The position numbers and the translations under genes were made by a program. Source: Bdellovibrionales bacterium (GTDB lineage Bacteria > Bdellovibrionota > Bdellovibrionia > Bdellovibrionales > UBA1609). From it: 64,000 nt of DNA. Positions 7,234-37,943 of the stretch are shown here, piece by piece; position 1 is the stretch's first letter, and each line of letters begins with the position of its first letter. The DNA lies in NCBI GenBank assembly GCA_050249195.1, contig JBFWQY010000013.1, forward strand, positions 24,293-88,292. The letters run 5' to 3'. The notes beneath the pieces are model-generated. The model searched no databases and was not told the DNA's origin. It worked only from the letters and a program-made list of their open reading frames with translations.

Positions 7234-7716
7234 CTACAAAAGACTCTCAATGTTGAGAGTGAGAGACTCCGGTTTTGTTTTCGGTGAAACTCGGTCCACA
7301 ATATTTCCATGTCTATCAACTAAAAACTTTGTGAAATTCCATTTGATACTTTTCGTACAAAAAATTCCTCTTCGTTCTCGCTTTAGAAATTGATAAAGCG
7401 GGTGTGCATTGGCGCCATTAACGTCTATCTTTGAAAACAACGGAAAACTCACACCAAAATTGGTTTCACAATAACTTTTGATTTCATCTGCGTCCCCTGG
7501 CTCCTGTCCACCAAACTGATTGCAAGGAAATCCAAGAATTTCTAGTCCACGAGAGTTGTATTTTCGGTAAAGATCCTCCAGGCCCTTATATTGCGGAGTG
7601 AATCCGCAATGACTTGCGACGTTTACGATAAGGAGAACCTTGCCTTTGAATTCAGACAATTTGATATCTTTGCCGCTAATTGCTTTTGCAGTGAAATCAT
7701 ACACGGTTGGTTTCAT
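7234..7716 (-). CDS. Glutathione peroxidase
   Basis: NVASHCGFTPQY, LGFPCNQFGGQEPG and IKWNFTKFLVDRHG motifs. Start refined to MKPTVYDF at 7716, overlapping the RND gene stop by 20 nt. Confidence 0.9.
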   Translation of the reverse strand: MKPTVYDFTAKAISGKDIKLSEFKGKVLLIVNVASHCGFTPQYKGLEDLYRKYNSRGLEILGFPCNQFGGQEPGDADEIKSYCETNFGVSFPLFSKIDVNGANAHPLYQFLKRERRGIFCTKSIKWNFTKFLVDRHGNIVDRVSPKTKPESLTLNIESLL

Positions 7717-10700: not shown

Positions 10701-10891
10701 GAGACAAGGGTTTCAACTTCTTCGGGTCCAGCTCCAGGGTAAAGAGTACTTACTGAAACAATAGGAAATGTGATGTTTGGAAACAAATCTACCGACATGC
10801 TTCTTAGAGACATATAACCAAGAGCCAGAAGAATAATGGCGAGCGCTGTAACAAAAACGGGCCTTTTTATGGAAATATCTGCTGGGCTCAT
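7697..10891 (-). CDS. RND efflux transporter, AcrB/AcrD/AcrF family
   Basis: 1064 aa with 12-TM, two-large-loop architecture. N-terminus SIKRPVFVTALAIILLALGYMSL. Typical AcrB-like sequence throughout. Confidence 0.95.
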   Translation of the reverse strand: MSPADISIKRPVFVTALAIILLALGYMSLRSMSVDLFPNITFPIVSVSTLYPGAGPEEVETLVSRVLEEEMSTVTGIKTLRSTNSEGLSMVIAEFTLETDIKYAEQQIRDRVSSAKRKLPKDIEEPVIRRIDPADQPIVILALTAKLPEAELFDLADKTVKPKIEQVNQVGLVEIIGGREREIHVELDRKKLKSYEVSASTVVNRISAAGQNIPAGKVDEAKTETVFRTLGEFKNVKDISSVIVSFLGNDVPVTVADVGQVVDTVQDEKSRAYTNGERSVFMMVFRQSGANTIAVADAVKARVEKLNSELNGGKVTVVRDGSKMIRANVADVYEAIIIGIILTIIVVYFFLGSGRSTFITGLALPTSLIGAFFLMSTAGFTINVMSLLALSLAVGLLIDDAIVVRENIFRHTELGKEPIRAASEGTKEVLLAVIATTLAVVAVFAPIGFLKGVVGQFFKEFGLTVCFAMAISLFDAVTMAPMLSAYFAGTTHGPKDSKGFWGKTMGRLVGGFDRFQTWLENRYEEILGWTLKNPLLVIGTSLIIFVGSLWIIKFIPKTFLPAQDMGEFSVSLDMPPGTSLNAMSEVAVEVDKIMRANPEVADSVMIIGGRTGEANKAQFFVTMVPSDQRKINTSDFKDKVREQLKPFSQARPIVKDIDMVMGGQRPFNLNIIGTDLAQIEEISNKVYEKLKDHPALKDVDITYRPGKPEFQVVPDKVRAERLGVATTIIGQELRTQIEGTVAAVFREKGEEYDIRVRLEENQRNLKQAFGDTYVPNVNQSLVRLSSVAQPVETTGPANITRQDRGRYIQIAADVAPKGPGMGAVMTDIQQMFANDIKLPPGMKYAFVGQAENFQELVSSMIAAALLGILFIYLVLASLYESFVTPFTIMLVLPLAACGAFFGLLVAGESLNIFSMIGCIMLLGVATKNSILLVDYTNQMLKEGMDYSKAVIAAGKVRLRPILMTTFALIAGMLPIAIGLNEASKQRTGMGVAVIGGLISSTLLTLLVVPAAFSYMERYRVWSLGLVLRLVGNKSKSGGHQVVTNGSHKVPAPEIVEVVNETNRV

Positions 10892-12321
10892 CGGCCACCT
10901 CCAAATGTCTTAAGTTGCGCAAAAATATTTAACACTTCCGCTTGGGCGCGAATGCGAGCGAGCTGTGAACTGGCGAAATCTTGCTCGAATAAGATGACCT
11001 GATAGGTCGTAGTGCGTCCGCGCTTGTGACGATTTCGTTCATGATCAAGCTTTGTTCTCTGGGCAGACTCAATTTGGCGTGCAAGATCCAGCCTCTGGCG
11101 CGCTTCAGAGAATTTTTTATTGAGATCATTCCACAGACGCTGCTCTTCAAATAATTTTTGCTGATAAACCATCTGGGCGGCTCTAGATTCACTTTCATAT
11201 GCACGACGGTCATCGCTGAGCTGCCCTATATCAAGTGGCATATTAAAGCGTATTCCAACAGTACTATGTGGGTGCTTGTCTGTAAAAGACTCCGACATCG
11301 ACTCATCGGATTTCGGATCACGTCCGTTAAGACCAACATTGACGTAAGCATCTAAAGTGGGTTTATTTCGCTGCCTCGCAAGCTCTGCGTTGGCTTGTGC
11401 GGCAATCTGCTCTTGCTCCGCTGCCTTAACGTCCTCTCGAACTCCTTTTTTATCAGGAGTCTTGAGATTTTTAATTGTATTCTCATCAAATCCATTCAAA
11501 TTTTCAGAGACGAAATCGGACTCAAGGCCTCGTGTAGTATTGAATGCGCGGCTTGCTGCCTTCTCTTCATCTGTAGCAGATTGCATCTCAAGTCTACGTG
11601 ATAACAATGCCGCTTCAGCCTGAAGAAAATCCGCCTTGTCGGCGAGATCCAACTTTGTGCGACCAGAACTCCAGCTTCGTATTCTTTCCGCACGCTCCAG
11701 ATTTTCTTTGGCCGCCGCTAAGGCTTCACGGGCTAAAGCCAGGCGCCAATAAAGAGATTCCGCTTCAGCACCAATAGATGTCTGGCGGAAACTCGCTAAA
11801 TATTTCGCTGACAGCGCCTGGGCTTCTTGCAGTTTCTGCGTCGCTCGAATTTCTCCACCGAACCCATTTTTACCAAAGGACTGTGTTAACTCTAAGTATG
11901 GACCCGTAGTAAAAAAATGGGGTTCGGCCAGAAACGAGGGATTTGCGCCGTTTACAGTCGTATCGTTGTAATTGTAAGAAAGCTTTGCCGAAAGACCAAA
12001 TCGTGTTTGCTGACTCACACCCAAACTATAAGTATCAACGGTTGTTTCATTTCCCTGCAGAGTCGGAGAACTCACTTCTCGTTCATCCTTAAACCGTTGA
12101 GCTGATCCGAATAGTGAAGGGGAGGTTAGAAGCGTCCACTCTTCCTTTCTCAATTCAGCGGCTTCTTCGCTTATTTCGGCACCTTTGTATATTCCGTTTT
12201 TAGCACCCACCTGCTTCAGGTAGTCATCAAGACTCAGCTTTGTTGCTACGGAATCTTGAGCCCATGCTGGGCAGAATACAAAAACGCCGGAAATTACAGC
12301 CAACCATCTATTCATTTTCAT
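10888..12321 (-). CDS. TolC-family outer membrane factor
   Basis: 477 aa with a signal peptide (VFVFCPAWAQD) and OEP repeats. 4-nt start/stop overlaps with both neighbours. Confidence 0.85.
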   Translation of the reverse strand: MKMNRWLAVISGVFVFCPAWAQDSVATKLSLDDYLKQVGAKNGIYKGAEISEEAAELRKEEWTLLTSPSLFGSAQRFKDEREVSSPTLQGNETTVDTYSLGVSQQTRFGLSAKLSYNYNDTTVNGANPSFLAEPHFFTTGPYLELTQSFGKNGFGGEIRATQKLQEAQALSAKYLASFRQTSIGAEAESLYWRLALAREALAAAKENLERAERIRSWSSGRTKLDLADKADFLQAEAALLSRRLEMQSATDEEKAASRAFNTTRGLESDFVSENLNGFDENTIKNLKTPDKKGVREDVKAAEQEQIAAQANAELARQRNKPTLDAYVNVGLNGRDPKSDESMSESFTDKHPHSTVGIRFNMPLDIGQLSDDRRAYESESRAAQMVYQQKLFEEQRLWNDLNKKFSEARQRLDLARQIESAQRTKLDHERNRHKRGRTTTYQVILFEQDFASSQLARIRAQAEVLNIFAQLKTFGGGR

Positions 12322-13022
12322 TTTGAATTCTCCTTAGGCTCTAAACCTCTGGCCGATAAGCCTTCAAGAAAAATAGGAAGTATTTGTTCCTCAAGCTTTT
12401 TACGGACAGCGGGCATTTGGACTGAAAAATTAAATAATTTTTCGTTTAAACTGTTCAATCGTCCCAATTGATTCAGACTCCCTATAAAAAGGGATGCCGC
12501 AATAAAAGGTTCTATGTCTTTTCGAATCAGCCCCTTTTTTGCGGCAGACTCGAAGAATTTCAGGAGACACTCAAAGACTTTTAGAAACGTTTGCGTGAAA
12601 ATATCTCTGGCAACAGGTAGACCTAATTCGCACTCTCGATGAATGATCGCAGTCAGTTCAGGTTCATCCGTATAGCAAACGAGCATTTGTTCTATGAACA
12701 TCTGAAGTCTGACTCGAACCTCCTCAGCGTTTTCGGCTGGATGCAATATCCTCTCCGCCAGTTCTAGATTTTCCCGGCCAAATCTGTCTAAACAGGCTTG
12801 GTACAAGCCTTCTTTACCGTTGAAGTAATAACTGACTAAACTAATGTTTACCTTAGCTAGTTCAGAAATTTCCCTAACGGAAGTTCCTGCATAGCCATGA
12901 GAGGCAAACAGCTTAATAGCAGCAGAAATCAAAAGTTGTTTTGTTGTCTCGTGCGCAGCCCCCGACGGGTGATCGGACTTCGCTTCTTCCTTTTTAGCAT
13001 TTCGAACCTTCACTTTTCCCAT
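12318..13022 (-). CDS. TetR-family transcriptional regulator
   Basis: HTH LLISAAIKLFASHGYAGTSVREISELAKVNISLVSYYFNGKEGLY. Confidence 0.9.
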   Translation of the reverse strand: MGKVKVRNAKKEEAKSDHPSGAAHETTKQLLISAAIKLFASHGYAGTSVREISELAKVNISLVSYYFNGKEGLYQACLDRFGRENLELAERILHPAENAEEVRVRLQMFIEQMLVCYTDEPELTAIIHRECELGLPVARDIFTQTFLKVFECLLKFFESAAKKGLIRKDIEPFIAASLFIGSLNQLGRLNSLNEKLFNFSVQMPAVRKKLEEQILPIFLEGLSARGLEPKENSK

Positions 13023-13055
13023 GATTTTCTCATCTCTCAGATAAAAATATCGGTC

Positions 13056-13068
13056 ATATTGACAATAT
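13056..13068. promoter_or_regulatory. Perfect 13-bp palindrome ATATTGACAATAT in the TetR/OMP divergent intergenic region (candidate TetR operator overlapping a -35)
   Basis: Read directly from the sequence. TTGACA at 13059-13064 is followed 16 nt later by TAATAT at 13081-13086 on the plus strand. The reverse reading gives TTGTCA for the TetR operon. Confidence 0.4.
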
Positions 13069-13168
13069 CCTTAATTAATATAATATAAAAATTCAAATTT
13101 TTGTTTAAAAAATTACGCTGGCGCACAATGGCGTATTTTGTTGAGACAATGGCGGGCACAGTTGGGGA

Positions 13169-14155
13169 ATGACGAGAAGTTTAAAGCACGTATGTTTTAC
13201 TAAAAAATTCCGAACTTTAATCTTCAGTTTGCTATTTGCGTCTGGGACATTTTTAGCTGGCCCAGTTTTTGGCCAAGAAATGAACATGTTTCCTGGTTCG
13301 GCAGGAAAACTGACGTTGTCACTGGACCAGACCTATCTTGAGGCACGAGAAAACGCTGACCCAAAGTTCGAAGAGCAAAGGGGATCGCTTAATCTCCCCA
13401 TTTGGGATGGCGTCGATTCTTCCTTGGCAATGATTTTGCGTGGCCAACGCACCAGCTTCGGTCAGCGCGTTTACTTTCCAGAAAAAGGAGTTGAACTACC
13501 TGAAGAGTTTGGTGCCGCTGATATTGGCTTGGCGTGGAGCCGCGAAACTCTCTCTGGCGACCAACTCTCAGCTTCAGCAACATATGGTCATGCTGGAACA
13601 AAGCTGCTAGACAATGGTCATTCAGCGATTGTAAGCGCCAACTTTTTTTATGAAGACAGGGGGCCAACCTCGTCCTGCCTTTATTTTGTCAATTACTCAA
13701 ACAACCGGCCCTACTTAAACAATATCCCGATTCCAGGGGTGGCGTACATGAGCCGAGGCAAGTCACATACATGGATATTCGGCTTACCGTTTATTTTTCT
13801 TTCATGGAGGCCCTCGCTCTTTAGTTTGACAACCTCGATTTCACCATTTGGTGCTTTAATCGAACCTGCATTCCGAATTTACGGCCCGCTTCAAATTTTT
13901 GGCAATCTCTCTTGGTCTCCAAGGTCATATCAAGGTGTCGTAAAGCATGGCGATGATCGTCTGATTGCAGATAAGAAGGAGGTCGGCGGAGGTTTGCGTA
14001 TGAGTTTTTCCAAGGATGCAAGCTTATCGTTGGGATATATTTATGCCTTCGATCGCCGGCTTCTGGTCGCGCGCTCGTTGACCGACGACGCCGCCGAGTC
14101 AATCAACGTCAGAGATTCAGGTGGATTTCAGATCAAAGGAAGATTGTCGTATTAA
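13169..14155 (+). CDS. Secreted protein, probable outer-membrane beta-barrel (function unknown)
   Basis: 328 aa. Signal-peptide-like N-terminus (LIFSLLFASGTFLAGPVFGQE). Alternating beta-like pattern. C-terminus ends in ...GRLSY, the aromatic terminal residue typical of OMPs. Confidence 0.5.
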   Translation: MTRSLKHVCFTKKFRTLIFSLLFASGTFLAGPVFGQEMNMFPGSAGKLTLSLDQTYLEARENADPKFEEQRGSLNLPIWDGVDSSLAMILRGQRTSFGQRVYFPEKGVELPEEFGAADIGLAWSRETLSGDQLSASATYGHAGTKLLDNGHSAIVSANFFYEDRGPTSSCLYFVNYSNNRPYLNNIPIPGVAYMSRGKSHTWIFGLPFIFLSWRPSLFSLTTSISPFGALIEPAFRIYGPLQIFGNLSWSPRSYQGVVKHGDDRLIADKKEVGGGLRMSFSKDASLSLGYIYAFDRRLLVARSLTDDAAESINVRDSGGFQIKGRLSY

Positions 14156-14406
14156 CAATATGTTTATATACAGTTGAGTATCAGTGCTTGATCGCGCAGT
14201 AAATAAACATTTATGAGTAGTTTAAACAACATGTTGATTTTATAGAAATCTGCCAAGCGTCCTTGTGGACCAAAACCCAGCAGTAGGTTTTCAGGCGAAC
14301 TTCTTTTTTGTTAGCTCACTGGTCAAAACATGAAGAGATGAAATTCTGTCGAAGAAAACAGAGGGCAGGAAAAAAGGAAAAAATGTAAGAGCTGCAACTT
14401 ATTGAT

Positions 14407-15174
14407 CTAACTATCAACTCCACGAACGACTGAGACTGCTAAGTAATATTGGCAGTAATCACAATCCTGAGAATAGCTGGGAATTTCTTTACTTTGAAGA
14501 CACTTGTATGCGGCCATAATGGTATCAGACACCCATCCGTCATTGCCTTTGTATGGAATAATGGACACATCGAATTCCAATCGTTTATCGAAGCGAAGAT
14601 GATCTGTTCTGCCATTGCAGTAAACAAAGTAGGCAGTATCTAGGACTAGAAAACCATTTTTCCTGAACAACCATTGGTAAATCTCTGCCTGTCTCTTATA
14701 ACCGATTTGCCAATCAGCATCCAAGGTCACTGGTTCAGCTTTAGAGGTAGCTTTATAGTCTACAATGATCAGTGATTTTGTTTCTGAGCAAATCCAGATG
14801 TCGTCTACACCGCCCGTTATTACGAAGCTTGTCTGAGGAACAGCGTATCGGATACCCCCGTGAAGGGAGTCACGCCATCTGTTCATCTCTGGATGAGCAA
14901 AGGGAATCGCATTAACTTGGTGGTCGAAAAACAAAGGATGAGGTTGCTGTAGCCCTCGATAGTGATCGAATTCTTTTTTCAAAAGAGCATCAACGGCGGT
15001 ATTTAAAGTAAACGGATAGCTTGGGGGATGTCCAACACCAAGGCGTCGATCAACATAAAAACAACGCGGGCACTTGAGGAAAAGATCGAGTTTACTACGA
15101 CTGACTGTGAATGGAGTGGCGGACTTTGGATCATAGAGATTACGGGTTCGCTGTGATCGGTAGTATTTGCTCAC
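14407..15174 (-). CDS. PD-(D/E)XK nuclease, Cas4/RecB-like with Cys cluster
   Basis: 255 aa. N-terminal SRSKLDLFLKCPRCFY. Core GGVDDIW...LIIVDYKATSK (D...D/E-x-K). QAEIYQW (QxxxY). C-terminal Cys (CLQ...CDYCQY), consistent with an Fe-S Cas4-like fold. Lies 22 nt downstream of the GHKL gene. Confidence 0.75.
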   Translation of the reverse strand: MSKYYRSQRTRNLYDPKSATPFTVSRSKLDLFLKCPRCFYVDRRLGVGHPPSYPFTLNTAVDALLKKEFDHYRGLQQPHPLFFDHQVNAIPFAHPEMNRWRDSLHGGIRYAVPQTSFVITGGVDDIWICSETKSLIIVDYKATSKAEPVTLDADWQIGYKRQAEIYQWLFRKNGFLVLDTAYFVYCNGRTDHLRFDKRLEFDVSIIPYKGNDGWVSDTIMAAYKCLQSKEIPSYSQDCDYCQYYLAVSVVRGVDS

Positions 15175-15196
15175 AATGAAGCCCTACTATGCCAGT

Positions 15197-17095
15197 TCAA
15201 GACTTACTCTCGCTCTCCATTTGACCCAGAAAATCTTCTAAGCAGCGGCCCCAGTCTTCTCTCATTCGGTGTAGACGCCGTTTCTCTTCGCTGTCGCTTT
15301 GAGTTTGTGTTTCCACTTTTGCCCACGCCTCTAACATTAACATTATGGTAGTTTTGGTTTCCTTAAGGCGCTGTTTGAGTTCATCAACATTGTCAACAGC
15401 CTCATCCCCAATGCTACTTAAAAGCATTGGATAAACGGGATGATCTTTATTCAGCTCAATTATTTTTGCATCTACTACGCTTCGAACATTAAAGAAAGAT
15501 GACCCCAAGCCAGATTTAGAAACGATTGCATAGGACAATCCACGTTCCACGATTCGTGCAGCCAATTGTTCAGCGTCTCTTTGCGGAACGCCGCCGACAG
15601 TAATTAGATCTTCTATCAGCTCTTTTCGCCGTTTCTCTTTGTCAGTATCAGATGTAGATGCTTCCCCTTTTGTCGACTTGTCGGCCTTTGTCGCCACATT
15701 CTCAGCCGTACTTTCTGGAGTTGGAGATTCCCCCTTCTTTGTCTTAGATCCTGGCTCTCGCGTGTCTACCTCGATTACACGGCTTTTTTCATGTTCGTCT
15801 TTTGTATCATCCCAAACTTTTTGCATCAGCCATGCAAGCTCTAAGCAGACGGCCAAATGAGGATCTTCGGTATGTAATCTGCGAATGCATTCGTCTGTTG
15901 ATTCTTTATCCTCCTTATAGTCGCTTTGACTTTGTCTTAAGACCTGATCCAGACGCGTATATCCTTGTTTGTTGTTGGTCATGCCTAGAATTGCATCGAG
16001 TTCTTGAGGAATATCAAATTCCACTCCAAACCATCTCTCTTGTGGCTTGTTGTGTTCAACTAGAGCCAAACTTAACTCTACCTCACGACCCTCCCTCATG
16101 ATTGATAAGCCTGTATTTCTGGCGGCATGTTCTCCGTGTGGCAATTTACCTGCCTTAACACCATTCAAAGTCGCATTCGTATTTTTCTTTGCTACAGATC
16201 TTCGATAGGTAACACGCACCTTACTGGTGGTGTTGTCTGGTAATTTTATTTTTAGATCAATGCCGTTATCATTTCCCGTTATATCCTCGAACAGTGGGTC
16301 GTCAGGGGGCCATAGCGTCCCATCCTCAACTTCTTTTTTCGGAATATTACAACCAGGAATTATATAGAGAGGATCGTTTGGGGTTATGTTTACTTTCTCA
16401 ATCTCTTTAAAAGACTCATTTATCACAAATACCGAAATTGTTAGTTCGGGCTTCTTGCCGCCTAACATTTTTCGATAAATTCTTCCGACATGAAATTCGA
16501 GGTTGGGAATAAGGCCCGATCTTTCGCCCCATCTCGCTCGTGACCAAGTAATCCCGTCTAAGGCTTCCCATAAAATAAAGGTTCCGTGCGGTTCTTTTTC
16601 TAAGTCCGCAGCCTTGAGCCATTTGCCATCAGGGGATTCTTTCCATGAGGGCAGAACATTTGCTCCCTTTTCAATCCAATCATGATCTTCAATATTCACC
16701 AAATTGCCGTAGGCATTTCCGAACCCTTTTGATGTCCAACTCCAAACAGAAAATTTATTGCATTGTGAGATTGAAGCCTTTGGCAAACCAACGCCATATT
16801 TTCCTAGTTTTCTTCTGCTTGGAGTTCCTTTACTGTATTGGCGGTTAAGATACTCACCACTTTTCTCGCACACCGCCGCTTGAAGTATCGTGGGCTCCAT
16901 ACCATTTCCATTGTCGAGTACTCCTATTTTTTGAAGTCGATTTTCTCGATCAACCATCAGGACTATTGCAATTTTTGTTGCGGTAGCCTCAAATGAATTA
17001 TCTATGAGTTCTGCCAACGCATGGACAGTAGTTTTGTATCCTGCGTTTTTTTCGAATGAATGTTTGCTAATTGAAAAATATGGTCTTGCTTTCAT
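15197..17095 (-). CDS. GHKL (Bergerat-fold, HATPase_c_3/MORC-like) ATPase
   Basis: N-box HALAELIDNSFEA, G1 box GVLDNGNGM, G2 box GKYGVGLPKAS. Start refined to the ATG at 17095, which has a GGAGGAG RBS and a TGATG overlap with the helicase stop. My recollection is that this domain type belongs to the SspFGH module, but I cannot assign the letter. Confidence 0.8.
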   Translation of the reverse strand: MKARPYFSISKHSFEKNAGYKTTVHALAELIDNSFEATATKIAIVLMVDRENRLQKIGVLDNGNGMEPTILQAAVCEKSGEYLNRQYSKGTPSRRKLGKYGVGLPKASISQCNKFSVWSWTSKGFGNAYGNLVNIEDHDWIEKGANVLPSWKESPDGKWLKAADLEKEPHGTFILWEALDGITWSRARWGERSGLIPNLEFHVGRIYRKMLGGKKPELTISVFVINESFKEIEKVNITPNDPLYIIPGCNIPKKEVEDGTLWPPDDPLFEDITGNDNGIDLKIKLPDNTTSKVRVTYRRSVAKKNTNATLNGVKAGKLPHGEHAARNTGLSIMREGREVELSLALVEHNKPQERWFGVEFDIPQELDAILGMTNNKQGYTRLDQVLRQSQSDYKEDKESTDECIRRLHTEDPHLAVCLELAWLMQKVWDDTKDEHEKSRVIEVDTREPGSKTKKGESPTPESTAENVATKADKSTKGEASTSDTDKEKRRKELIEDLITVGGVPQRDAEQLAARIVERGLSYAIVSKSGLGSSFFNVRSVVDAKIIELNKDHPVYPMLLSSIGDEAVDNVDELKQRLKETKTTIMLMLEAWAKVETQTQSDSEEKRRLHRMREDWGRCLEDFLGQMESESKS

Positions 17096-18768
17096 CACTC
17101 CTCCGCTGAGTTTTTCCAAGAATCGTCAAACGCATGAAATTGACGTATTGTCTCTACCAATTCTGGAACTTGTGTATCTACGACGGTTACCAGAAGGGCT
17201 TCTTTGTTACCTTTAACTTTTGGCCCTCGAATAGCTCTCCCTGCCATCTGATTTAATAAAACAATGGAAGTCGTGGGCCTTGCTACAACGACGGCGGATG
17301 TTTTTGGAGCATCAAAGCCTGTTGTTAAGACGCCAAAATTAGTTAGAACAAAAGGTGTTTCGGTCGTTTTTTTATATTCCGATATACATTGCGAACGAAT
17401 ATATGAAGGCGTTTGATTTGTAATAGACGCAGATTGAATACCTCTTGCTTGAAGAATGTTTGCAATAACAATTGATGCCTCTACTGACGCCGCAAAAACA
17501 ATGACACGTTTGTGTCCCTCATCTAATACGAGTTTTTCCACCCTATTCACAACTTGCAGGTTACGAGTCGCATTTAATCCAAATGCACGTAAGAGGTGTT
17601 CGGGTAAATCCAAAGATGTTTCAAGACTAGTCTGAAGCTCCGCAAGTTGGGGTTTCGTCAATGTGGCACTCGCAATAGGGAGCTGCTCCTTTTTTAATTT
17701 TGCAAGATACTCCATTGCCACAAGTGCATCGACAGGGGAGTCGAAACCCGGAATTTCAAGCAGTACCTTCTGCCCTGCGAACATCTGCACTAACTTGTTA
17801 TCGTCGGTAACCTCACCACCATAGTGACGGCGACCAGGAGTTGCTGAAAGACCCAGGAGGGCGGTAGATTTATCCGTAATGCTATTTATTGTCTCAGAAT
17901 AAGTTTTTGCCACCGATCGATGAGCCTCATCAAAAACGACAAGACAAATATTCTTTCGTCGTCCAATTCTTTGTGAGGGCTCCCAGCTCATTACAATATT
18001 TCTGACTGAATCCACGCTGCCAATTATCATGGCGTCAGTAAGCGTCTCCGGCCACTTGTCGTTCGCAAACTGTTGAATCATGTGAGCTGGAATACTCGGA
18101 TCACCTACCTCGCTCCACAATCGAACAATTGGAAGCTCCCTTCCGCCGAGACTTCGCCAAGCGCGCTCAAATTCTTCAGATGCTTGTTGGCATAATTCCT
18201 TTCCTGCAACCAACCAAACTACAACACCGGCTTCACGAGAATTCAGAATATTGGAAATGAGGTGCATTGCCGTGCGTGTCTTTCCAGATCCAGTCGGCAT
18301 GTGCAGCATTACTCGTGGCAAACTAGAGTGAAAAAAACTTTTACTTCGTTGCAGAGCTGAGTTTTGATGAGCGAACAACGAATACTCTGGACTTAGAATC
18401 TCGACTCTCGGAAGTCCGACTTCTTGCTCCGAGCGTTCTGGGGGAAGAGCACATCCAAAATATTCATAAATAATAGGTTTGCGTTCACTCGTGAGCTTAA
18501 AACTGTTTAGGGAGGAAATTCCCAAAGCGTTCATTAAAGTTGTTCGATCAGTTTTGTTCAGTGAAAGGAATAAAACTTTTCGCTTTTGAGCACTCTCTAA
18601 TAGAGCCTGCGGTCCCCCAACAACCTGTAGAATCAAATCACCACGCTCTACTTTGGCATCTCTAGATCGAGAGATTTCATTTACAAGTTCAACAATTTTT
18701 GCGTCCCCGATCAAATCTGACAGCGTACCATGATCAACAGAAGCAAGATGAGTTTTCAGGCGACTCAT
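17095..18768 (-). CDS. SF2 DEAH-box helicase (type III restriction res-subunit-like)
   Basis: Motif I MPTGSGKT, motif II VFDEAH, motif III SATP, motif VI QMAGRAIRG. ATGA overlap with the PLD gene. Confidence 0.9.
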   Translation of the reverse strand: MSRLKTHLASVDHGTLSDLIGDAKIVELVNEISRSRDAKVERGDLILQVVGGPQALLESAQKRKVLFLSLNKTDRTTLMNALGISSLNSFKLTSERKPIIYEYFGCALPPERSEQEVGLPRVEILSPEYSLFAHQNSALQRSKSFFHSSLPRVMLHMPTGSGKTRTAMHLISNILNSREAGVVVWLVAGKELCQQASEEFERAWRSLGGRELPIVRLWSEVGDPSIPAHMIQQFANDKWPETLTDAMIIGSVDSVRNIVMSWEPSQRIGRRKNICLVVFDEAHRSVAKTYSETINSITDKSTALLGLSATPGRRHYGGEVTDDNKLVQMFAGQKVLLEIPGFDSPVDALVAMEYLAKLKKEQLPIASATLTKPQLAELQTSLETSLDLPEHLLRAFGLNATRNLQVVNRVEKLVLDEGHKRVIVFAASVEASIVIANILQARGIQSASITNQTPSYIRSQCISEYKKTTETPFVLTNFGVLTTGFDAPKTSAVVVARPTTSIVLLNQMAGRAIRGPKVKGNKEALLVTVVDTQVPELVETIRQFHAFDDSWKNSAEE

Positions 18769-19742
18769 GACTTCTTCTTTGTTGAAATGATTTCGGAATG
18801 ATTCGGTCGCGTAACTTCAAACTTGTCTGGACCAAGCTCTACAAGCCAACTATATAGCACCTGCACATTGTCGGTTAGAGTTCGACGCGAAGGCACCGGA
18901 ACATCTGTACAGGTGTTTTGAACCCATTCTTTTATAGCTCCAAACCTTCGAGACTCCTGATCAATAAATTTGCAGAGAGCCGCAATGAATGGATGTTGAA
19001 AAAATCTGCTGCCCAGTTGCGCTTGAAATGCTTGATAGTCAAGGCTTTCAAGGTTTTCTAACTCATAGTTAGCAATGTCATGTCGAGCATTTGCGAGCAC
19101 TTCATCATCAAAGTTAGTTTCGCCTTTGAGCGCCTTAAACAATTGCTCAATAGAACGGCTCATAGGCAAAGCCGAAATTAGAAATGATTTTCTTGAGTCG
19201 AGAGAAGTGTCAAAGGTGAATTGAGCTTCGTCTACGAGATTTCGATGATCGAGAATTTCCTTACGGAACTTTTTGTATAGCTCTTCAAACTGAGCCGCAA
19301 TTTCGTCGGTAACAAGAGTTGCTTCCTTTCTGATTTTAGAAAGGTACACAAGATAGGGTTGAGGGGGATCATCGACTCGGACAAGGGTTTCGTAGTTTGC
19401 CTTCTTTGAAAGTCCTAAAGCTCGGCCCGTCAAATTTGCCGAACCTGTTAGAAGCCTTCGATAATCGGCGACAAAGGTCTTTAGGTGAATATCCTGGTTT
19501 AGAAAAAGAAAAATGCCGTTCTTTTTGCAGTATGGATAGATCGAAAGATCGGACGCGCCGAAAGCAATATCGGCAATTCTCCATGTTGTGACGATTGCGA
19601 CACGGGATTCAGCTTTCTTTGCCTTTAATATTTCGGTCAGGGGCTGACAGGAAATATAGGGGGAATAAAGCTCAATCGTGCTTTGAGAGGTTTGAACGAG
19701 GTCTGAGACCTCTCGGTGTAGATTCTCGAAAAGTAAATTCAT
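18765..19742 (-). CDS. PLD-family (single HKD motif, Nuc-like) nuclease
   Basis: Perfect HxK(x4)D(x6)GSxN motif: HLKTFVADYRRLLTGSANLT. First gene of the minus-strand operon. Confidence 0.85.
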   Translation of the reverse strand: MNLLFENLHREVSDLVQTSQSTIELYSPYISCQPLTEILKAKKAESRVAIVTTWRIADIAFGASDLSIYPYCKKNGIFLFLNQDIHLKTFVADYRRLLTGSANLTGRALGLSKKANYETLVRVDDPPQPYLVYLSKIRKEATLVTDEIAAQFEELYKKFRKEILDHRNLVDEAQFTFDTSLDSRKSFLISALPMSRSIEQLFKALKGETNFDDEVLANARHDIANYELENLESLDYQAFQAQLGSRFFQHPFIAALCKFIDQESRRFGAIKEWVQNTCTDVPVPSRRTLTDNVQVLYSWLVELGPDKFEVTRPNHSEIISTKKKS

Positions 19743-20105
19743 CTGTTTTCAATTCTTTCCTTAAGTTACCTATAAATGTTCGCACCTAAAGTAAAACTAC
19801 GCAATAAATGGCCGCAGCTTCCGCGACTATTCGCCTAACCGAAAACCCCTTTGTCCTATCGGTAGGCCAAAAAACTTACTACATTGTAGGGCGGCGCATA
19901 AGTTCCTAAAAGGGGGGTTTTACTTTGTTCGCGCTCGTGCTCGAAGACCGGGCACTAAATTGAAGTTGTTCTTTATGCGGAGCAAGATAGCCCGAAAAAC
20001 GGATTCTCACCCCTGTTGCGGTCCCGTCAGAAAAGTCCGGGGTGGAGGTAGTTTCCTTGCATCCGCCACCCGGTTAGGGTTTAATAATTGACAAGAGGGA
20101 CAACG

Positions 20106-21017
20106 ATGCAGTTTGCAGCACATGAAACATTTCACATCAGAGACGGATGGCTTCACAAAGGTCTTTCGGTAATTTCAAAAAGACCGGATATTTTTTCTGA
20201 TCCTCATGCAACCGACACTTTCGGTGTCGGTCGGAACATGGTCGATGCTTTAAGGTATTGGTTAATCGCGGCGGATCTTGCAAAAGAGGAAAAGCTCAAA
20301 GAGGGCGAAGTAAAAACCGGAAATCGGTATGGCTTTACACCGCTTGGTAAACTGCTTTTCAAAAGAGATCGCTTCATCGAAGAAGATTTAAGTCTCTGGG
20401 CTTTGCACTACCATATCGCTACGAACAAGCAAAAGGCGACGAGCTGGTATTGGTTTTTCAATAAGCTGCCCGTAACTCGCTTTGATACGCAAACTTGTCT
20501 GAATTATCTTCTTCGATGGGTTGAACAGCTTGAGGGAAAAAGAAAGCCTAACATCACTTCTCTCCAGAAGGACATCAGCTGTCTTTTAAGAACCTATACA
20601 AAGGCACATGGTAAAAGGAAATCTGATTATTCCCCTGAAGACTCATTTGAGTGCCCTTTTGCTTCTCTGGGTTTGGTTGATTATCTAGAAAACTCTGATT
20701 CCTACAAAGTAAATTACGGCAAAAGAACAATTCCCGTTCATGCTTTTGCTTATGCGGTTTTGTGTTTTATGAAGGGCTCGGAACAAGCTCGAACAGAAGT
20801 TGGCTTTCAGGATTTACTTTCTTCCGAAGGCTCTCCTGGTCGCGCATTTCTACTCTCTTCAGAGGGGCTATTGAGCAATATTGATTTAATGATTGAGTCC
20901 TTTTCGAAGGAATTCTCTTTTTCCAAAACTGCCGGACTCAACACTCTCCGATTAAGAAAGGGAGATGTTCGCGCAATTGAAATTCTTGAAAGAGGTTACA
21001 TCGGGATGGACACATGA
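20106..21017 (+). CDS. sspB: DUF4007-like protein, SspB-type (PT-system nickase candidate)
   Basis: N-terminus MQFAAHETFHIRDGWLHKG matches my memory of the DUF4007 signature (HETF.lR.GWL.K). About 300 aa. Immediately precedes the large ATPase and the PAPS-reductase-like gene. Start refined to the ATG at 20106, which has an AAGAGGGA RBS. Confidence 0.7.
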   Translation: MQFAAHETFHIRDGWLHKGLSVISKRPDIFSDPHATDTFGVGRNMVDALRYWLIAADLAKEEKLKEGEVKTGNRYGFTPLGKLLFKRDRFIEEDLSLWALHYHIATNKQKATSWYWFFNKLPVTRFDTQTCLNYLLRWVEQLEGKRKPNITSLQKDISCLLRTYTKAHGKRKSDYSPEDSFECPFASLGLVDYLENSDSYKVNYGKRTIPVHAFAYAVLCFMKGSEQARTEVGFQDLLSSEGSPGRAFLLSSEGLLSNIDLMIESFSKEFSFSKTAGLNTLRLRKGDVRAIEILERGYIGMDT

Positions 21018-24000
21018 AAAAGCAAAGCAAAAAGAATTTCGATGTTAGAACCCTAAGATCAATAAACCTTGAAATGGATTTGCCGGAGCCGTCCAGACTT
21101 CTCGGCTATGTCCCGACCAGAAAGGCAGTCACTCTCAGTGCGGAAATCCTATCGAGCTTGATTGGAAAATCAAATGATCGGGCGTTTGCAATTTCGGCTC
21201 CGTATGGAAGCGGGAAATCGAGCGCGGCACTGTTCTGGTGTCAACTGTTAGAGCTAGGGAAAAAGCCTGCTGAACTGAAAGTTTTGTTCGAAGAAGCCAA
21301 GAAGAAAGATCGTCAGTCAGAAAAGGATGAAAGTGTTTTCTGTCAATGGGAGCGCCGAAAACCGAACGGCCTTGCAGTACCTATTGTCGGATTTGATGGC
21401 GGATCTATTCCAAATGTTATCTTTCAGGCTATTTTGAATTCCCTAGAACGCAATGGGCAGGGGGCGCTGGCTACAAAGCTAAAGAAATTGCCGAAAACAA
21501 TGGATGGACTTAAACACGCCATTGAATTGGTAACGGTCAGTTCCGGCAAATATGATGCTCTTCTCATTGTGTGGGATGAGTTTGGGAAAGTGCTAGAGAG
21601 AGCAACTCTTCAGGGCGATGGAAAGGCTCTTCTTGAGATTCAAATTCTTGCAGAATTCGCTTCACGTTCTCCTGCAGAATCACCGTTTGTATTTTGTATT
21701 TTAATGCACCAAACTTTTGCCAGATATTCGGCGTCTCTTCCTGGTTATGTACGCAACGAGTGGGCCAAAATTGAAGGTCGCTTCCGACAGATCAACTACA
21801 TAGAGGACAGCAAAGAAATCTATGAACTGATTTCGCAGGTTGTGTCCCGAAAATACGGGATTCCTGAAGAAAAGAAATCCGTATTCAAGGGTCTAGCCGA
21901 GCGTTGTCATGCCGTAGGCATGTTTAAGGAATTCGATCAGGAAGCTCTAACCGAATTACTTTGGTCTTCAGCGCCGTTGTCTCCGGTCTCTTTGTATCTC
22001 TTGCCCCGCGTTTCTGCGAGAGTTGCTCAGAATGAGAGAACGATGTTTTCATTCCTTTGGTCAGAGGAAACAACCGCGCTTCCGCAGCTCAAGAGAAAAT
22101 GGGTTGCACCATCAGATATATTTGATTTTTTCGCGGACCTCATGAGGATTGACACTTCTATTGGTGGTGCTCATAGGCTTTGGGTTGAAGCAAACTCCGC
22201 CTTAAAAAAGATCGAATCCGGCACAGAAGAAGATTTAGTTAAAGCGTTAGCCTGTATAAAAGTCGGAACATCATCCGGCAGTCTTGCGGGAACGACAAAG
22301 ATTCTTGAAATTGCATTCGGCGATCAAACTGAGGCTTCCACCAAAAAGCTCCACCAGGCGGTCAAATCTCTAGAGAAGAAGAAAGCTATTTTTCACAGGA
22401 AGCTCACCGGCGAATATTCTGTGTGGCAAGGTTCTGATGTCGATATTCGTGGCGCGGTCGAAGAGAACAAGGCCAAGCTCGTTGAAAGTTTGGATTTAAC
22501 AAAAGTTCTTACGAGAGACTTTGCTCCGCCATACCGATTCCCTCAAAGGCACAATGACATTCACTGCATTCGGCGCTATTTCGACGGGCGATATATTTTA
22601 TCCAACGAATTAGATTCGAGAGTCGCCTCGGAAACGGCAAATAATGACGGTTATCTTGATGGTCGCATCTACTACGTCATTGCTGAAACTGCAGAAGAAC
22701 TTCGCAAGGCTGTAAAGGCGGCTGAATCAGCAGCTGACGACAGGGTCCTATTTGCGATCCCCCAATTCCCATTGCACTTGCGAGAGGGATTGGCAGAACT
22801 TGAGGCTTACCACCAACTACTTGCCGATCCTGATTTTAGAAAACAGGATCCCATTGTCGAACAGGAACTAAAACAGCTCGCGGATGATAGCGAGCAACAC
22901 CTAAGAGTCCTCGTTTCAAAAATAATGCAGCCCTCAGTTGAAGGACCGATTTATTTTTGGAAAGGCCATGCTTACAAAGACGTTGATACGATGGGTGCTT
23001 TGAAGCGCCTGTTGTCGAAGGTGTGCGACAAAAACTATTCTCAAACACCAATTATCAACAACGAACTGATCAACAAAGCCGAACCATCTCCTCAAATTGT
23101 GAATGCGCGAAAGAGCATTATCCGTGGCATTTTTGAGAATTATGGAAAAGAGCAGTTGGGTCTTTCTGGATACGGTCCCGACGTTTCGGTATTTAGAGCG
23201 CTCTTTCTAAACACTGGCATTTACCGCAAACAAGCGTCTGGGTGGTCTTTTGCTCCAAAGGGTCGTGAGCTAGAAAACAAAGGGTTAAGTGAAGTTTGGC
23301 AGATTGGAATTGATTTCTGGTCTAAGCCGAGTCGCGTTCCGAAAGACCTCCGTTCTCTTCTGGCAAATTGGCAGTCGCCTCCGTTCGGTATGCGCCGGGG
23401 GATAATGCCACTTATCTTGGCTTCGAGCTTCCGATGTGCCGGAAGTCAGGCGCAGGTATTTGAAGACGGAATCTTTGTTACAGATTTTAAACCAGAAACT
23501 TTCGAGAGAATGGTCCGCACTCCACAGGCTTTCAATATCCTCGTTCCTGAACTGAAGAAGGACTTTATTGAATTCTTGGATAACGTAATCGATCTCTTTA
23601 CCGAATCAGAAAAACAAGTTCTATCTGGAGATCGAATTCGAGCTGCTGCTCAAGCGTTGATGGTATGGCTCAAGGACTTACCTCAAATTGCGAGGGAACG
23701 TGGAATGCTCTCTCCAGTGGTCGACGAATTTGTTTTAACGCTTCTTGAGGCCCGTGATCCCACGCTTCTTTTAAGCGAATCACTCAAGAAGAATTGGAGT
23801 TTGGACTCGTATTCTTTGGTTTTTCAAAAAATAGAAAAACTTAAAAAAGAGATAGAGGGCATCGAGAGTTCCTACTTTGACAAATGTAGAAGTACCTTGC
23901 TTGCCGCGATCCAGTTTGGGGCTACAAAAAACCTTAATTCTTTTTATCAGAAGTGGATTGAAACTCTTCCGGGTATGGATTCCGATGAATTGAGAAAGAG

Positions 24001-24364
24001 GTATCTCACGGATAAGCGCGCAGCGGGACTGATTAGTAGAATTGAACAAGGGTATTCAACAGAAAATCTCTTCGTGATGAGTCTGGCCGAGCTATTCGCT
24101 GAAAAGCCGCTCAAATTTTGGAACTCTTCAAGCCTAAGCATTTTCGAAGTAAATCTACATCAGACCATTCGTTGGATGGAGGATCTGGCAGACGATATTG
24201 ACCTTGAAACTTGGCGGCACAGTTCTTCCGACAGTAGCGGTGCTGGGAAGTGGATTGAGAAGAGGGTTAGAAATCAATTCGAACGAGTTGTTCAGCGTTT
24301 AGGAAAAAAGGAAGCTAAGAAATTCGTTGAGCGTGTCATGGAAAGTCTTGGAGAAGGTCCATGA
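21014..24364 (+). CDS. sspC: Large P-loop ATPase, SspC-type
   Basis: 1116 aa. Walker A SAPYGSGKSS and Walker B LLIVWDEFGK. Position between the DUF4007 and PP-loop genes. ATGA-type overlaps at both ends. Confidence 0.7.
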   Translation: MKKQSKKNFDVRTLRSINLEMDLPEPSRLLGYVPTRKAVTLSAEILSSLIGKSNDRAFAISAPYGSGKSSAALFWCQLLELGKKPAELKVLFEEAKKKDRQSEKDESVFCQWERRKPNGLAVPIVGFDGGSIPNVIFQAILNSLERNGQGALATKLKKLPKTMDGLKHAIELVTVSSGKYDALLIVWDEFGKVLERATLQGDGKALLEIQILAEFASRSPAESPFVFCILMHQTFARYSASLPGYVRNEWAKIEGRFRQINYIEDSKEIYELISQVVSRKYGIPEEKKSVFKGLAERCHAVGMFKEFDQEALTELLWSSAPLSPVSLYLLPRVSARVAQNERTMFSFLWSEETTALPQLKRKWVAPSDIFDFFADLMRIDTSIGGAHRLWVEANSALKKIESGTEEDLVKALACIKVGTSSGSLAGTTKILEIAFGDQTEASTKKLHQAVKSLEKKKAIFHRKLTGEYSVWQGSDVDIRGAVEENKAKLVESLDLTKVLTRDFAPPYRFPQRHNDIHCIRRYFDGRYILSNELDSRVASETANNDGYLDGRIYYVIAETAEELRKAVKAAESAADDRVLFAIPQFPLHLREGLAELEAYHQLLADPDFRKQDPIVEQELKQLADDSEQHLRVLVSKIMQPSVEGPIYFWKGHAYKDVDTMGALKRLLSKVCDKNYSQTPIINNELINKAEPSPQIVNARKSIIRGIFENYGKEQLGLSGYGPDVSVFRALFLNTGIYRKQASGWSFAPKGRELENKGLSEVWQIGIDFWSKPSRVPKDLRSLLANWQSPPFGMRRGIMPLILASSFRCAGSQAQVFEDGIFVTDFKPETFERMVRTPQAFNILVPELKKDFIEFLDNVIDLFTESEKQVLSGDRIRAAAQALMVWLKDLPQIARERGMLSPVVDEFVLTLLEARDPTLLLSESLKKNWSLDSYSLVFQKIEKLKKEIEGIESSYFDKCRSTLLAAIQFGATKNLNSFYQKWIETLPGMDSDELRKRYLTDKRAAGLISRIEQGYSTENLFVMSLAELFAEKPLKFWNSSSLSIFEVNLHQTIRWMEDLADDIDLETWRHSSSDSSGAGKWIEKRVRNQFERVVQRLGKKEAKKFVERVMESLGEGP

Positions 24365-25149
24365 AGAAAACACGGCATATTCTAGGATTGTCAGGGGGCA
24401 AAGACAGTACAGCACTTGCGATCTATATGAGAGATAAAGTCCCCAATATGGAGTATGTTTTCACCGATACCGGGGCCGAACTTCCTGAAACCTACGAGTT
24501 TCTTGAAAAGCTAGAAGCATTCCTTGGAAAGAAAGTTGTACGCCTCAATGCTGAGACCGCCTTTGATGATTTGCTCGAAAGAAAAAATGGCTATCTGCCC
24601 TCGCCACGCGCCCGTTGGTGTACGGTCGCATTGAAGATCGTGCCATTTGAGAAATATGTCGGTGATGACGATGTCTACAGCTACGTCGGGATTCGTGCTG
24701 ATGAAAATCGTTCTGGTTATGTCTCATCAAAGCCAAACATTAAGCCTGTTTTTCCGTTCAAAGAAGCTGGAATCACTCTCAAAGAGGTTCAAGAGATTCT
24801 AGACACCGCAGGCGTCGGCCTTCCGAAATACTATGAATGGCGCAGTCGATCTGGATGCTACTTTTGTTTTTTTCAGCAGAGAAAAGAATGGGTTGGGTTA
24901 CTCCGTCGGCATCCTGATCTTTATGAAAAGGCCAAGGCTTACGAGAAAACCCAAGGCGATAAGAAGTTTACCTGGGTTGAGGGATCAACTCTGAAAGATG
25001 TAGAGCGCAATGCTGATGAGATCATGCGAAGAGCTGACGAGAAGGCCCTCAAAGAAGAGAAGAATAAAAAGAAGCTAACACTTTTTGAAATATTAAACTC
25101 TGAGACTGAAGACAAGAACGATCAGTCCTGCTTGATTTGCGAACTCTGA
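24361..25149 (+). CDS. sspD: PAPS-reductase-family PP-loop ATP pyrophosphatase, SspD/DndC-like
   Basis: PP-loop LGLSGGKDSTALAIYM. Conserved Cys motifs (ARWCT, SGCYFCFF, CLICE). Confidence 0.85.
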   Translation: MKKTRHILGLSGGKDSTALAIYMRDKVPNMEYVFTDTGAELPETYEFLEKLEAFLGKKVVRLNAETAFDDLLERKNGYLPSPRARWCTVALKIVPFEKYVGDDDVYSYVGIRADENRSGYVSSKPNIKPVFPFKEAGITLKEVQEILDTAGVGLPKYYEWRSRSGCYFCFFQQRKEWVGLLRRHPDLYEKAKAYEKTQGDKKFTWVEGSTLKDVERNADEIMRRADEKALKEEKNKKKLTLFEILNSETEDKNDQSCLICEL

Positions 25150-26339
25150 TGGAAATTGATGTCTCAAACTCTTTTCATAGGCAAGAAACACCCTTAGATT
25201 TCGAAGGCGTCTCTCCCTTTTATTGCGACTACAATGCGACCACTCCAATTCCATCAAAGCTCATTCGAGCAACATCAAAAATCTATGCATCCCATTGGTT
25301 TAATCTGAGTGCTCCTTATGGGTCTGCCAACGATGAAAATCAGTGGATGAATCAAATGCGGTATAAATTCTCTGCTTTATCGGGAGATCGAGAGGCAAAG
25401 GTCGTATTTTGTGCTTCATCAACAGAGGCTATTAACCAAGCGATCTACTCTCTATCGTTAGAGCTGGGGTCCGAAGGAAAGATTGTAATTTCTGACATTG
25501 AGCACTCGGCGGTTCGTGCCGCCGCTGAGAAGTGGTTTTCCAATAGAGTTGTCATTATCTCCGCGAAGCAAATTCTTTCGGGTGATTTTTCTGAGGTGGT
25601 CAGAATCACCGAGAACGCCCAATCCTTCGCAGTATTTATTCAAGCGGGCAATAACGAAACTGGCGTAATTCTTCCTCTTACAGAGCTTCGCAAGCATATA
25701 TCTGGCCATCGATTGATTGTGGACGCTTCCCAAGTATTCGGAAAGAACGAAGACTTTGTTGATCAACTCAGCATTGCTGATGGCGCGATTATTTCTCCAC
25801 ACAAATTTTACGGGCCTAAGGGTGTAGGGGTTTTGATTTGGAAAAAGAGCCTCGGCACACTCCATCCTCTGATAGTTGGAGGTGGTCAAGAACATGGACT
25901 TCGTTCGGGAACAGAAAATACTCCTGCCCTATATCTGACAAATTTGTGGTTACAAAGTCTTCCCGAAATAATGGAAGCGTTTAGTCCTGTTTCTGAGTTT
26001 TGCTCTGCTTTTGAAAAACACCTCACTGAGCATTGCCCTAACGCTAAAGTTGTTGGATCAGAATATGACCGACTCAGAAATACGACCGCAATTTGTTTTT
26101 CTGGTGTCTTGTCGGACCATATTGTTCCAGCGTTAGACTACGCAGGTATATCGGCGTCGTCGGGTTCCGCGTGTAATTACGGAACTCAAGAGCCAAGCAG
26201 AAGCTACTTATCGCTCGGTCTATCTTGGGATGATGCTCGCTGCGTGATCAGATTTTCTTTTGGATGTCCTAATCTCAAAACGACCCCCACAACTTTAGCT
26301 GACAACGTAACTCAGGTCATAAAGAAGGTTTCAGGGTAA
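25149..26339 (+). CDS. sspA: Class V aminotransferase / cysteine desulfurase (IscS/NifS/DndA-like)
   Basis: PLP-lysine motif ISPHKFYGPKGVGVL. Catalytic-Cys loop SSGSACNYG. Start taken at the ATG at 25149 (TGATG overlap with sspD). The ORF track's alternative TTG start is at 25137. Confidence 0.85.
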   Translation: MEIDVSNSFHRQETPLDFEGVSPFYCDYNATTPIPSKLIRATSKIYASHWFNLSAPYGSANDENQWMNQMRYKFSALSGDREAKVVFCASSTEAINQAIYSLSLELGSEGKIVISDIEHSAVRAAAEKWFSNRVVIISAKQILSGDFSEVVRITENAQSFAVFIQAGNNETGVILPLTELRKHISGHRLIVDASQVFGKNEDFVDQLSIADGAIISPHKFYGPKGVGVLIWKKSLGTLHPLIVGGGQEHGLRSGTENTPALYLTNLWLQSLPEIMEAFSPVSEFCSAFEKHLTEHCPNAKVVGSEYDRLRNTTAICFSGVLSDHIVPALDYAGISASSGSACNYGTQEPSRSYLSLGLSWDDARCVIRFSFGCPNLKTTPTTLADNVTQVIKKVSG

Positions 26340-29447: not shown

Positions 29448-29732
29448 TTAGCTCCGCATATAACTGTGAACGACTTCACGGATCCGTTCGAACGTGGCTT
29501 CGGCGTCCTGGATTTGATCTTCAGGGAGCATTCCACCGGGTGCATTGTATCTTCGCTTCAGATCGCCCACGAGTTTTGGAAACACTGACTCCAAACGCAT
29601 GAGGTTGTCGGTGTCGGCCTTTCGAACTGCAGCAGCGATCAAAGCGTTGAACGGCAGGTCTTTTGCGGCCAGGTGTTTACTTATCTCGTAGTCGACTAGA
29701 TTCAATTCATCCATGCTGTGCCTCTCTTTCAA
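29448..29732 (-). CDS. Phage hypothetical protein (94 aa)
   Basis: ORF in tight operon spacing. Confidence 0.45.
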   Translation of the reverse strand: MKERHSMDELNLVDYEISKHLAAKDLPFNALIAAAVRKADTDNLMRLESVFPKLVGDLKRRYNAPGGMLPEDQIQDAEATFERIREVVHSYMRS

Positions 29733-30169: not shown

Positions 30170-30179
30170 CTCTCCTCCT

Positions 30180-36161: not shown

Positions 36162-36164
36162 CGA

Positions 36165-37432: not shown

Positions 37433-37446
37433 TCAACCCGCTTTAC

Positions 37447-37941: not shown

Positions 37942-37943
37942 AA

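Follow-up and report, generated by a model that had tools for sequence, protein, structure and literature searches.

A Cas4/RecB-like nuclease gene behind a rearranged PLD-helicase-GHKL operon and its divergent sspBCDA cluster in a Bdellovibrionales genome

The locus and the nuclease protein

We analysed a 64,000-nucleotide stretch of DNA from a Bdellovibrionales bacterium (GenBank assembly GCA_050249195.1, contig JBFWQY010000013.1, positions 24,293 to 88,292), referred to in its entirety as the window. It carries an ssp cluster for phosphorothioate (PT) modification of DNA and, divergent from it, an operon for a PLD nuclease, a superfamily 2 (SF2) helicase and a GHKL ATPase. Behind the GHKL gene lies a fourth gene, encoding a Cas4/RecB-like nuclease of the PD-(D/E)XK superfamily, which is the subject of this report. 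Our reading is that the nuclease is an optional accessory of the operon rather than a core subunit of the restriction module.

The nuclease gene occupies 14407..15174 on the minus strand and was characterised from its open reading frame (ORF), motifs, Pfam matches and an AlphaFold2 model compared with solved structures by Foldseek. The reading frame has 255 codons and opens with GTG, a start that is credible because the N-terminus of the product, MSKYYRSQRTRNLYDP, aligns with the N-termini of homologues. The stop codon of the GHKL gene lies 22 nucleotides upstream on the same strand, as the sequence-only reading had stated. This spacer (15175..15196, minus strand) contains a weak purine-rich stretch, TAGGG, 5' of the start, and a pattern scan saw no terminator-like site between the two genes. 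RNA folding places a hairpin across the nuclease stop codon, followed by a U-rich tract (UUUUUUCCUUUUUU; 14300..14420, minus strand). The hairpin is not significant (z = -0.94) and was missed by the terminator pattern scan; it could possibly mark the end of the transcript. Matches in the promoter and terminator pattern scans occur at chance level, so the scans do not settle the matter of an internal promoter either way.

The three upstream genes are tightly packed on the minus strand. The GHKL ATPase (15197..17095, 632 residues) carries the Pfam domain HATPase_c_3, is MORC/paraMORC-like and gives a weak match to the NCBIfam model MzaB. Its longest ORF opens at a TTG at 17119, and the likely true start is an ATG at 17095, which follows a GGAGG Shine-Dalgarno sequence and overlaps the helicase stop codon by 1 nucleotide. 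A database protein from a Bdellovibrionales metagenome-assembled genome (MAG; P0121) has the same 632-residue length and is 100% identical to the product read from this ATG. The SF2 helicase (17095..18768, 557 residues; ResIII/DEAD/Helicase_C) is related to the helicase part of PbeA and to TIGR04095. The PLD/HKD nuclease (18765..19742, 325 residues; PLDc_2), whose gene overlaps the helicase start by 4 nucleotides, is encoded first in the operon. A divergent intergenic region (19743..20087), presumed from its sequence to be the promoter region, separates the operon from sspB. On the plus strand follow sspB (20088-21017), sspC (21014-24364), sspD (24361-25149) and sspA (25137-26339), with PADLOC E values of 8e-73, 1e-165, 1e-110 and 5e-60, respectively. 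Together, sspBCDA (20088..26339) make up a single-strand phosphorothioate modification module.

The nuclease carries a complete set of catalytic motifs. These are D124/D125, D139-Y-K141 and Q162-x3-Y166, accompanied by the cysteine pairs C35-P-R-C38 and C238-D-Y-C241. All of them, along with C186 and C225, are invariant in an alignment of 36 homologous sequences, giving six invariant cysteines (35, 38, 186, 225, 238 and 241). The hallmarks from which the sequence-only reading had recognised a Cas4/RecB-like enzyme (D...DYK, QxxxY, CPRC and CDYC) are thus all present and conserved. Pfam PDDEXK_1 (PF12705) matches residues 24-243 at E=9.8e-10, with 39.2 bits against a cut-off of 22. With a match above the gathering threshold and an invariant catalytic core, the protein is a member of the PD-(D/E)XK superfamily.

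Structural comparison points to the same class. The AlphaFold2 model, built on the 36-homologue alignment, has a pLDDT of 89.5, and its best Foldseek match in the PDB is the Cas4 protein SSO0001 (4ic1; E 2.5e-5). RecE (E 4.5e-4) and RecB of RecBCD (E 1e-3) come next, followed by MGME1, EXO5 and AddB. TM-scores are low for all of these matches (0.3-0.4), and the similarity to solved structures supports a Cas4/RecB-like fold at that level of agreement. A profile search of PDB sequences with the nuclease family returned only spurious cellulase matches. Motifs, Pfam match and modelled fold agree in supporting the first assignment of the protein as a Cas4/RecB-like PD-(D/E)XK nuclease.

Membership of the Cas4 family proper was considered and rejected. 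The protein scores 19 bits with TIGR00372 (Cas4), below the curated cut-off of 65, the PADLOC Cas4 models match it weakly (E about 3e-4; 2.5e-4 or weaker), and neither a CRISPR-like array nor a cas gene is found in the 64-kb window. We therefore assign it to the Cas4/RecB class of PD-(D/E)XK nucleases and not to the Cas4 family itself. Features in common with Cas4 (SSO0001), RecB, AddB, EXO5 and MGME1 are the D...(D/E)xK core and the QxxxY motif, along with C-terminal cysteines and an N-terminal cysteine of 'CP' type. The protein differs from Cas4 in having no CRISPR link and in its cysteine arrangement, which is C-x2-C...C-x12-C-x2-C where Cas4 has C...C-x2-C-x5-C. The C-terminal pattern of the nuclease, C225-x12-C238-x2-C241, departs from the canonical C-x2-C-x5-C of both Cas4 and AddB, and iron-sulphur binding is for this reason only inferred. 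The protein probably holds a cysteine-ligated metal cluster.

Beyond the nuclease gene, 7697-14155 encodes an AcrB-type RND pump, a TetR regulator and a protein of 328 residues that has a signal-like N-terminus and matches no family. The genes in this part look ordinary and chromosomal, so the defence locus ends at the nuclease gene. On the ssp side, a DNA phosphorothioation-associated putative methyltransferase (TIGR04096; 26339..27781, plus strand; NCBIfam E=1.9e-120, 403 bits against a cut-off of 150) lies directly 3' of sspA. In four other loci (L154, L156, L162 and L163), the TIGR04096 gene is convergent with a conserved protein of about 720-800 residues encoded just after the PLD gene. 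About 2 kb past the ssp cluster, a prophage-like or mobile-element replication and recombination module spans 29729-39817 on the minus strand of the window. It encodes a 5'-3' exonuclease, a DnaB-like helicase, a RepB-type primase, a helix-turn-helix (HTH) protein, a YqaJ-like recombinase, AAA_24 and DUF7694.

The four-gene arrangement and the module it derives from

The four-gene form is found only in the window clade, which consists of the Bdellovibrionales MAG and a few metagenome relatives. In three loci (L001-L003), the nuclease is 82% identical to the window protein and the layout is the same, with sspDCB divergent from PLD-helicase-GHKL-nuclease. A further locus (L167) has this layout with all of its proteins diverged (SspD 76%, SspC 65%, SspB 68%, PLD 50%, helicase 65%, GHKL 64% and nuclease 58%). 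In a short contig (L183), the GHKL gene is cut by the contig end and the nuclease gene starts 2 nucleotides after it. The spacers between the GHKL and nuclease genes in the clade are 22, 46, 83 and 2 nucleotides. What follows the nuclease gene is different each time: the 328-residue protein, TetR and RND pump genes in the window, small ORFs and a resolvase gene in L001, genes for DUF3560 and HTH proteins in L167, and in L183 an RHS-like gene. At the nucleotide level, the loci are homologous to the window as far as 14435, at the 3' end of the nuclease gene, and no further. Since the flanks vary, the adjacency of the GHKL and nuclease genes is constant and the homology ends with the nuclease gene, operon and nuclease gene move together in this clade. 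An Ssp island that simply inserted beside a resident core gene does not agree with these observations, the flanks past the nuclease being different everywhere and its adjacency to GHKL constant.

The slot behind the GHKL gene may have been filled more than once. The L167 nuclease is 69% and 65% identical to copies in two Bdellovibrionota genomes that lack the operon, and 57-60% identical to copies of the window clade. Its closeness to the operon-less copies points to a slot that was filled by capture a second time or whose nuclease gene was replaced, an interpretation that we hold tentatively since the neighbour-joining tree is weakly resolved. A separate sign of exchange is seen between the window and L001. 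The right side (ssp, PLD and the start of the helicase gene) is 89% identical at the nucleotide level and the left side (the rest of the helicase gene, GHKL and nuclease) 67.5%, with a sharp mosaic boundary at about 18318-18560, in the 5' part of the helicase gene. From this pattern, we conclude that a recombination event exchanged one side of the locus.

The trio itself has many relatives. We fetched 80 metagenome loci through an alignment of GHKL homologues and searched them with the window proteins. A helicase was found in 66 of the 80, PLD in 47, sspD in 46, sspC in 41 and sspB in 35. The usual order is sspB> sspC> sspD> helicase> GHKL> PLD>, with all genes in one direction, and three further loci (L168-L170), whose GHKL proteins are 52-53% identical to that of the window, have this same order. 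Judged from these gene neighbourhoods, helicase-GHKL-PLD is a widespread module and a very common partner of sspBCD(A), with a predicted role in restriction, and the window operon is a rearranged form of it. The proteins are homologous, and both forms have sspBCD(A) as partner and sometimes the TIGR04096 methyltransferase. In the window clade, unlike the canonical module, the operon is divergent from ssp, the PLD gene has moved from last place to first, and the nuclease gene is added at the end. In L168, two PLD-like genes come after GHKL, and after them genes for a CBS protein and a 503-residue DUF2779 protein (9905-14583; Pfam E 2e-34). DUF2779 we take, from its Pfam clan, to be a Cas4-like PD-(D/E)XK domain, in which case this protein is possibly a parallel instance of an extra RecB-fold nuclease.

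The trio was compared with the known PT-linked restriction systems. A literature search, within the library covered, found no named or experimentally described Ssp-linked module of GHKL, PLD and helicase genes. SspE and SspFGH are likewise restriction partners of SspABCD and have no homology to the trio, and PADLOC gave no SspE, SspF, SspG or SspH match for any of the four operon genes. Identity with SspFGH is excluded by domain content: SspF carries a Walker A motif and SspH resembles FtsK (PMC8092258), whereas the trio consists of PLD, SF2 helicase and GHKL proteins. PbeABCD, a PT-linked system that combines a PLD/HKD nuclease with an SF2 helicase (PMC6459918; reinterpreted in PMC10853773), is closer in theme, and the window helicase matches the PADLOC PbeA model at E=7e-20. 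We rejected this identity as well, since only the helicase resembles PbeA, the PLD protein is encoded by a separate gene and the ATPase is of GHKL rather than ABC type. PbeA is a PLD-helicase fusion that occurs with the ABC ATPase PbeC, a small protein and another that is DndE-like; the system pairs with Dnd rather than Ssp and has neither a GHKL ATPase nor a Cas4-like protein.

A broader theme accommodates the window operon better. In MORC and paraMORC operons, a GHKL ATPase occurs together with an SF2 helicase and at least one nuclease of HKD or restriction-endonuclease fold; RecB-like nucleases are among these, and paraMORC3 carries a fused RecB-family nuclease domain (PMC2292703; Iyer, Abhiman and Aravind 2008). 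With HATPase_c_3, ResIII/DEAD/Helicase_C, PLDc_2 and PDDEXK_1 encoded on one strand, the window operon fits this type. It differs from the described operons in having Ssp phosphorothioation, not a methylase, as its partner, and in having its RecB-like nuclease as a separate, clade-specific gene.

Proposed accessory exonuclease or independent neighbour

We propose that the nuclease is a portable exonuclease of Cas4/RecB type that serves as an accessory of this clade's rearranged PT-restriction operon and degrades DNA after restriction; we give this reading a probability of roughly 0.45. According to the proposal, the operon order would have changed from helicase-GHKL-PLD to PLD-helicase-GHKL in one small Ssp clade of Bdellovibrionales-like genomes, and the nuclease gene would have been captured in the slot behind GHKL, where transcription from the operon promoter most likely runs on into it. 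The helicase and GHKL motors, acting with the PLD nuclease, would find DNA that lacks phosphorothioate and nick or cut it. The Cas4-like enzyme, as a metal-dependent exonuclease, would then load on the resulting ends or unwound strands and degrade them, so that its role would come after restriction and not in recognition. Both the exonuclease activity and the post-cleavage role are predictions. The analogy for this step is RecBCD, which clears restricted DNA in E. coli. As in RecBCD and AddAB, a helicase-associated nuclease of RecB fold would degrade DNA from restriction-made ends; unlike them, the window nuclease is a single-domain protein of 250 residues without a helicase of its own. The absence of a terminator-like site between the GHKL and nuclease genes supports the proposal, and the two genes are probably co-transcribed, as judged from their arrangement.

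The recurrence of the family beside ATP-dependent restriction systems also supports an accessory role. We looked at the surroundings of five closer homologues (63-68% identical), a small sample picked for long contigs only, and all five adjoin ATP-dependent restriction-type operons. Two are placed last in Type I gene clusters on the same strand, in the orders hsdM-hsdS-hsdR-nuclease with an 18-nucleotide gap (L184) and hsdR-hsdM-hsdS-mrr-nuclease with a 24-nucleotide gap (L185). Another two are divergent from Type I operons (L186 and L187), and the fifth is divergent from an operon encoding AAA_16, a PglZ-like protein, a DUF1156 methylase and SNF2, which is BREX/DISARM-like (L188). Similar placements occur elsewhere in the family: one nuclease gene lies 58 nucleotides 3' of a Type ISP enzyme gene (L007), and Mrr genes adjoin two others (L057 and L009). 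By iterative hidden Markov model search, HsdM-, HsdR-, HsdS- or Mrr-like genes are present within 10 kb in 17 of 79 genome loci, a count in which some HsdR matches may be generic SF2 helicases.

The family as a whole is large and distributed mainly among uncultivated bacteria. It comprises more than 8,000 clusters at 90% identity and 426 clusters at 50% identity (E<=1e-30), and the species-level genomes that carry it number at least 593. We inspected 80 genome loci with a nuclease homologue (L007-L086), of which record titles assign about 52 to the candidate phyla radiation (CPR)/Patescibacteria, 12 to Gammaproteobacteria, 6 to Omnitrophota, 2 to Bdellovibrionota and 8 to other taxa; all come from MAGs and none from a cultured isolate. 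A Pfam scan of 129 immediate neighbours of nuclease homologues returned a heterogeneous set of domains. A phage or plasmid origin was considered and rejected, with no match in 50,697 phage records and a single match, at 42%, in 72,556 plasmids. In IMG/VR, 12 contigs matched the family.

Several observations weigh against the accessory reading, beginning with the size and selection of the five-homologue sample. The nuclease is absent from all 84 other helicase-GHKL-PLD modules (the 80 metagenome loci, L168-L170 and L087, whose GHKL protein is 51% identical to that of the window), and conversely none of the 80 genome loci with a nuclease homologue has PLD, helicase, GHKL or Ssp genes within 10 kb. 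No neighbour of the nuclease family is conserved: when the 1,429 ORFs of 86 loci were clustered all against all, the largest neighbour cluster reaches 8 of 80 loci. The family is 56-69% identical across CPR/Patescibacteria, Gammaproteobacteria, Omnitrophota and Bdellovibrionota, a level far above that usual for defence components, which points to an autonomous, constrained function. Such conservation across phyla without a conserved neighbour is unusual. Within the clade, the overlaps that join the trio genes do not extend to the nuclease gene, which is set apart by 22-83 nucleotides in most loci. Finally, one sequence recovered from 7 samples (L005/L006) has lost the operon and kept the nuclease. 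The ssp genes, PLD, helicase and the ATPase domain of GHKL are deleted, leaving a relic at 4605-6594 of L005 with the C-terminal 390 GHKL codons, free of stop codons, while the nuclease is intact, has all of its motifs and is 79% identical to the window protein. The sequence-only reading had named, as an observation that would speak against it, a nuclease gene present at this position in related genomes regardless of Ssp genes, and L005/L006 goes part of the way towards that.

Most of these observations also favour the strongest alternative. In that alternative, the nuclease is an independent neighbour, either an autonomous enzyme of end processing, repair or recombination or a single-gene defence, which resides in variable or defence-island DNA and is uncoupled from PT restriction; its place behind GHKL would be a product of island mosaicism. 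Besides the missing association in the genome loci, the extreme conservation, the spacer and the survival of the gene after operon loss, a weak promoter-like match 5' of the L167 copy speaks for it, though matches in the promoter scan are at chance level. We regard this as a serious competitor, somewhat short of an even chance. An independent neighbour does not readily account for an adjacency to GHKL that is kept across differing 3' flanks and 50-76% protein identity, for shared homology that stops exactly at the 3' end of the nuclease gene, for two lineages of the family in the same slot, or for the recurrent placement of the family beside other restriction operons. The accessory reading and the independent neighbour are hard to separate.

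A more intimate role than that of an accessory is improbable. The sequence-only reading had made the nuclease the fourth gene of the operon, adding a second catalytic nuclease to PT-dependent restriction, and an integral, obligatory subunit of the restriction complex would agree with the shared strand, the short spacer and the order conserved in the clade. It would also agree with the move of PLD to the front of the operon, which leaves the nuclease in the 3' slot that PLD usually fills. Physical linkage to the operon does hold in the window clade; the extension to PT-dependent modules in general is not supported, and the 84 canonical modules evidently work without the nuclease. Furthermore, the nuclease is not translationally coupled to the trio, and the window copy has its closest relative elsewhere than in L167 even though the other genes of that locus are clear orthologues. 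In the 36-sequence alignment, operon-linked copies agree with those from other settings in length and motifs and carry no domain peculiar to the operon. From its distribution, the nuclease does not appear to be a core component of the Ssp-linked helicase-GHKL-PLD module.

Nucleases of the Cas4, RecB and AddB types act in end resection for recombinational repair, and the window enzyme might in the same way process nicks or breaks in under-modified host DNA, alleviating restriction and lowering toxicity. Partial PT modification, the toxicity of unrestrained PT-restriction modules to unmodified cells (as for SspFGH, PMC8092258) and the nuclease kept without the operon in L005/L006 would suit such self-protection, which we nevertheless consider the least probable of these explanations, since copies elsewhere have no recombinase or helicase partner conserved beside them and the canonical modules manage without the nuclease.

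Implications for Ssp restriction and for the nuclease family

Most sspBCD clusters are without a known restriction partner (PMC8092258). The helicase-GHKL-PLD module is a common partner of sspBCD, and the window contains a rearranged version of it with an extra Cas4-like nuclease. The gene class, the combination of GHKL, helicase and nuclease genes, and the Ssp systems were already known; the novelty lies in a four-gene arrangement specific to this clade and in the behaviour of a nuclease family that is very conserved and uncharacterised. To call the nuclease a fourth component of PT restriction is to claim less than it may seem, since the statement applies to one small clade only. If the nuclease does work with the operon as an accessory, we would have a natural example in which a restriction system brings its own end-degrading enzyme, and this would help to explain how bacteria that lack RecBCD clear restricted DNA.

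A wider and less likely possibility, which we regard as doubtful, concerns the family as a whole. It may be a portable 'clean-up' exonuclease that has been recruited repeatedly by Type I, Type ISP, BREX/DISARM-like and PT-Ssp systems, and that is most needed in uncultivated lineages with small genomes or a predatory lifestyle (CPR/Patescibacteria, Omnitrophota and Bdellovibrionota), which may lack RecBCD or AddAB. If that were true, the family would be a dedicated module for post-restriction DNA degradation and might also supply DNA fragments or nucleotides. The family is of note in its own right: a protein of about 250 residues with no assigned function, 56-69% identical across very distant uncultivated phyla and often encoded beside restriction systems.

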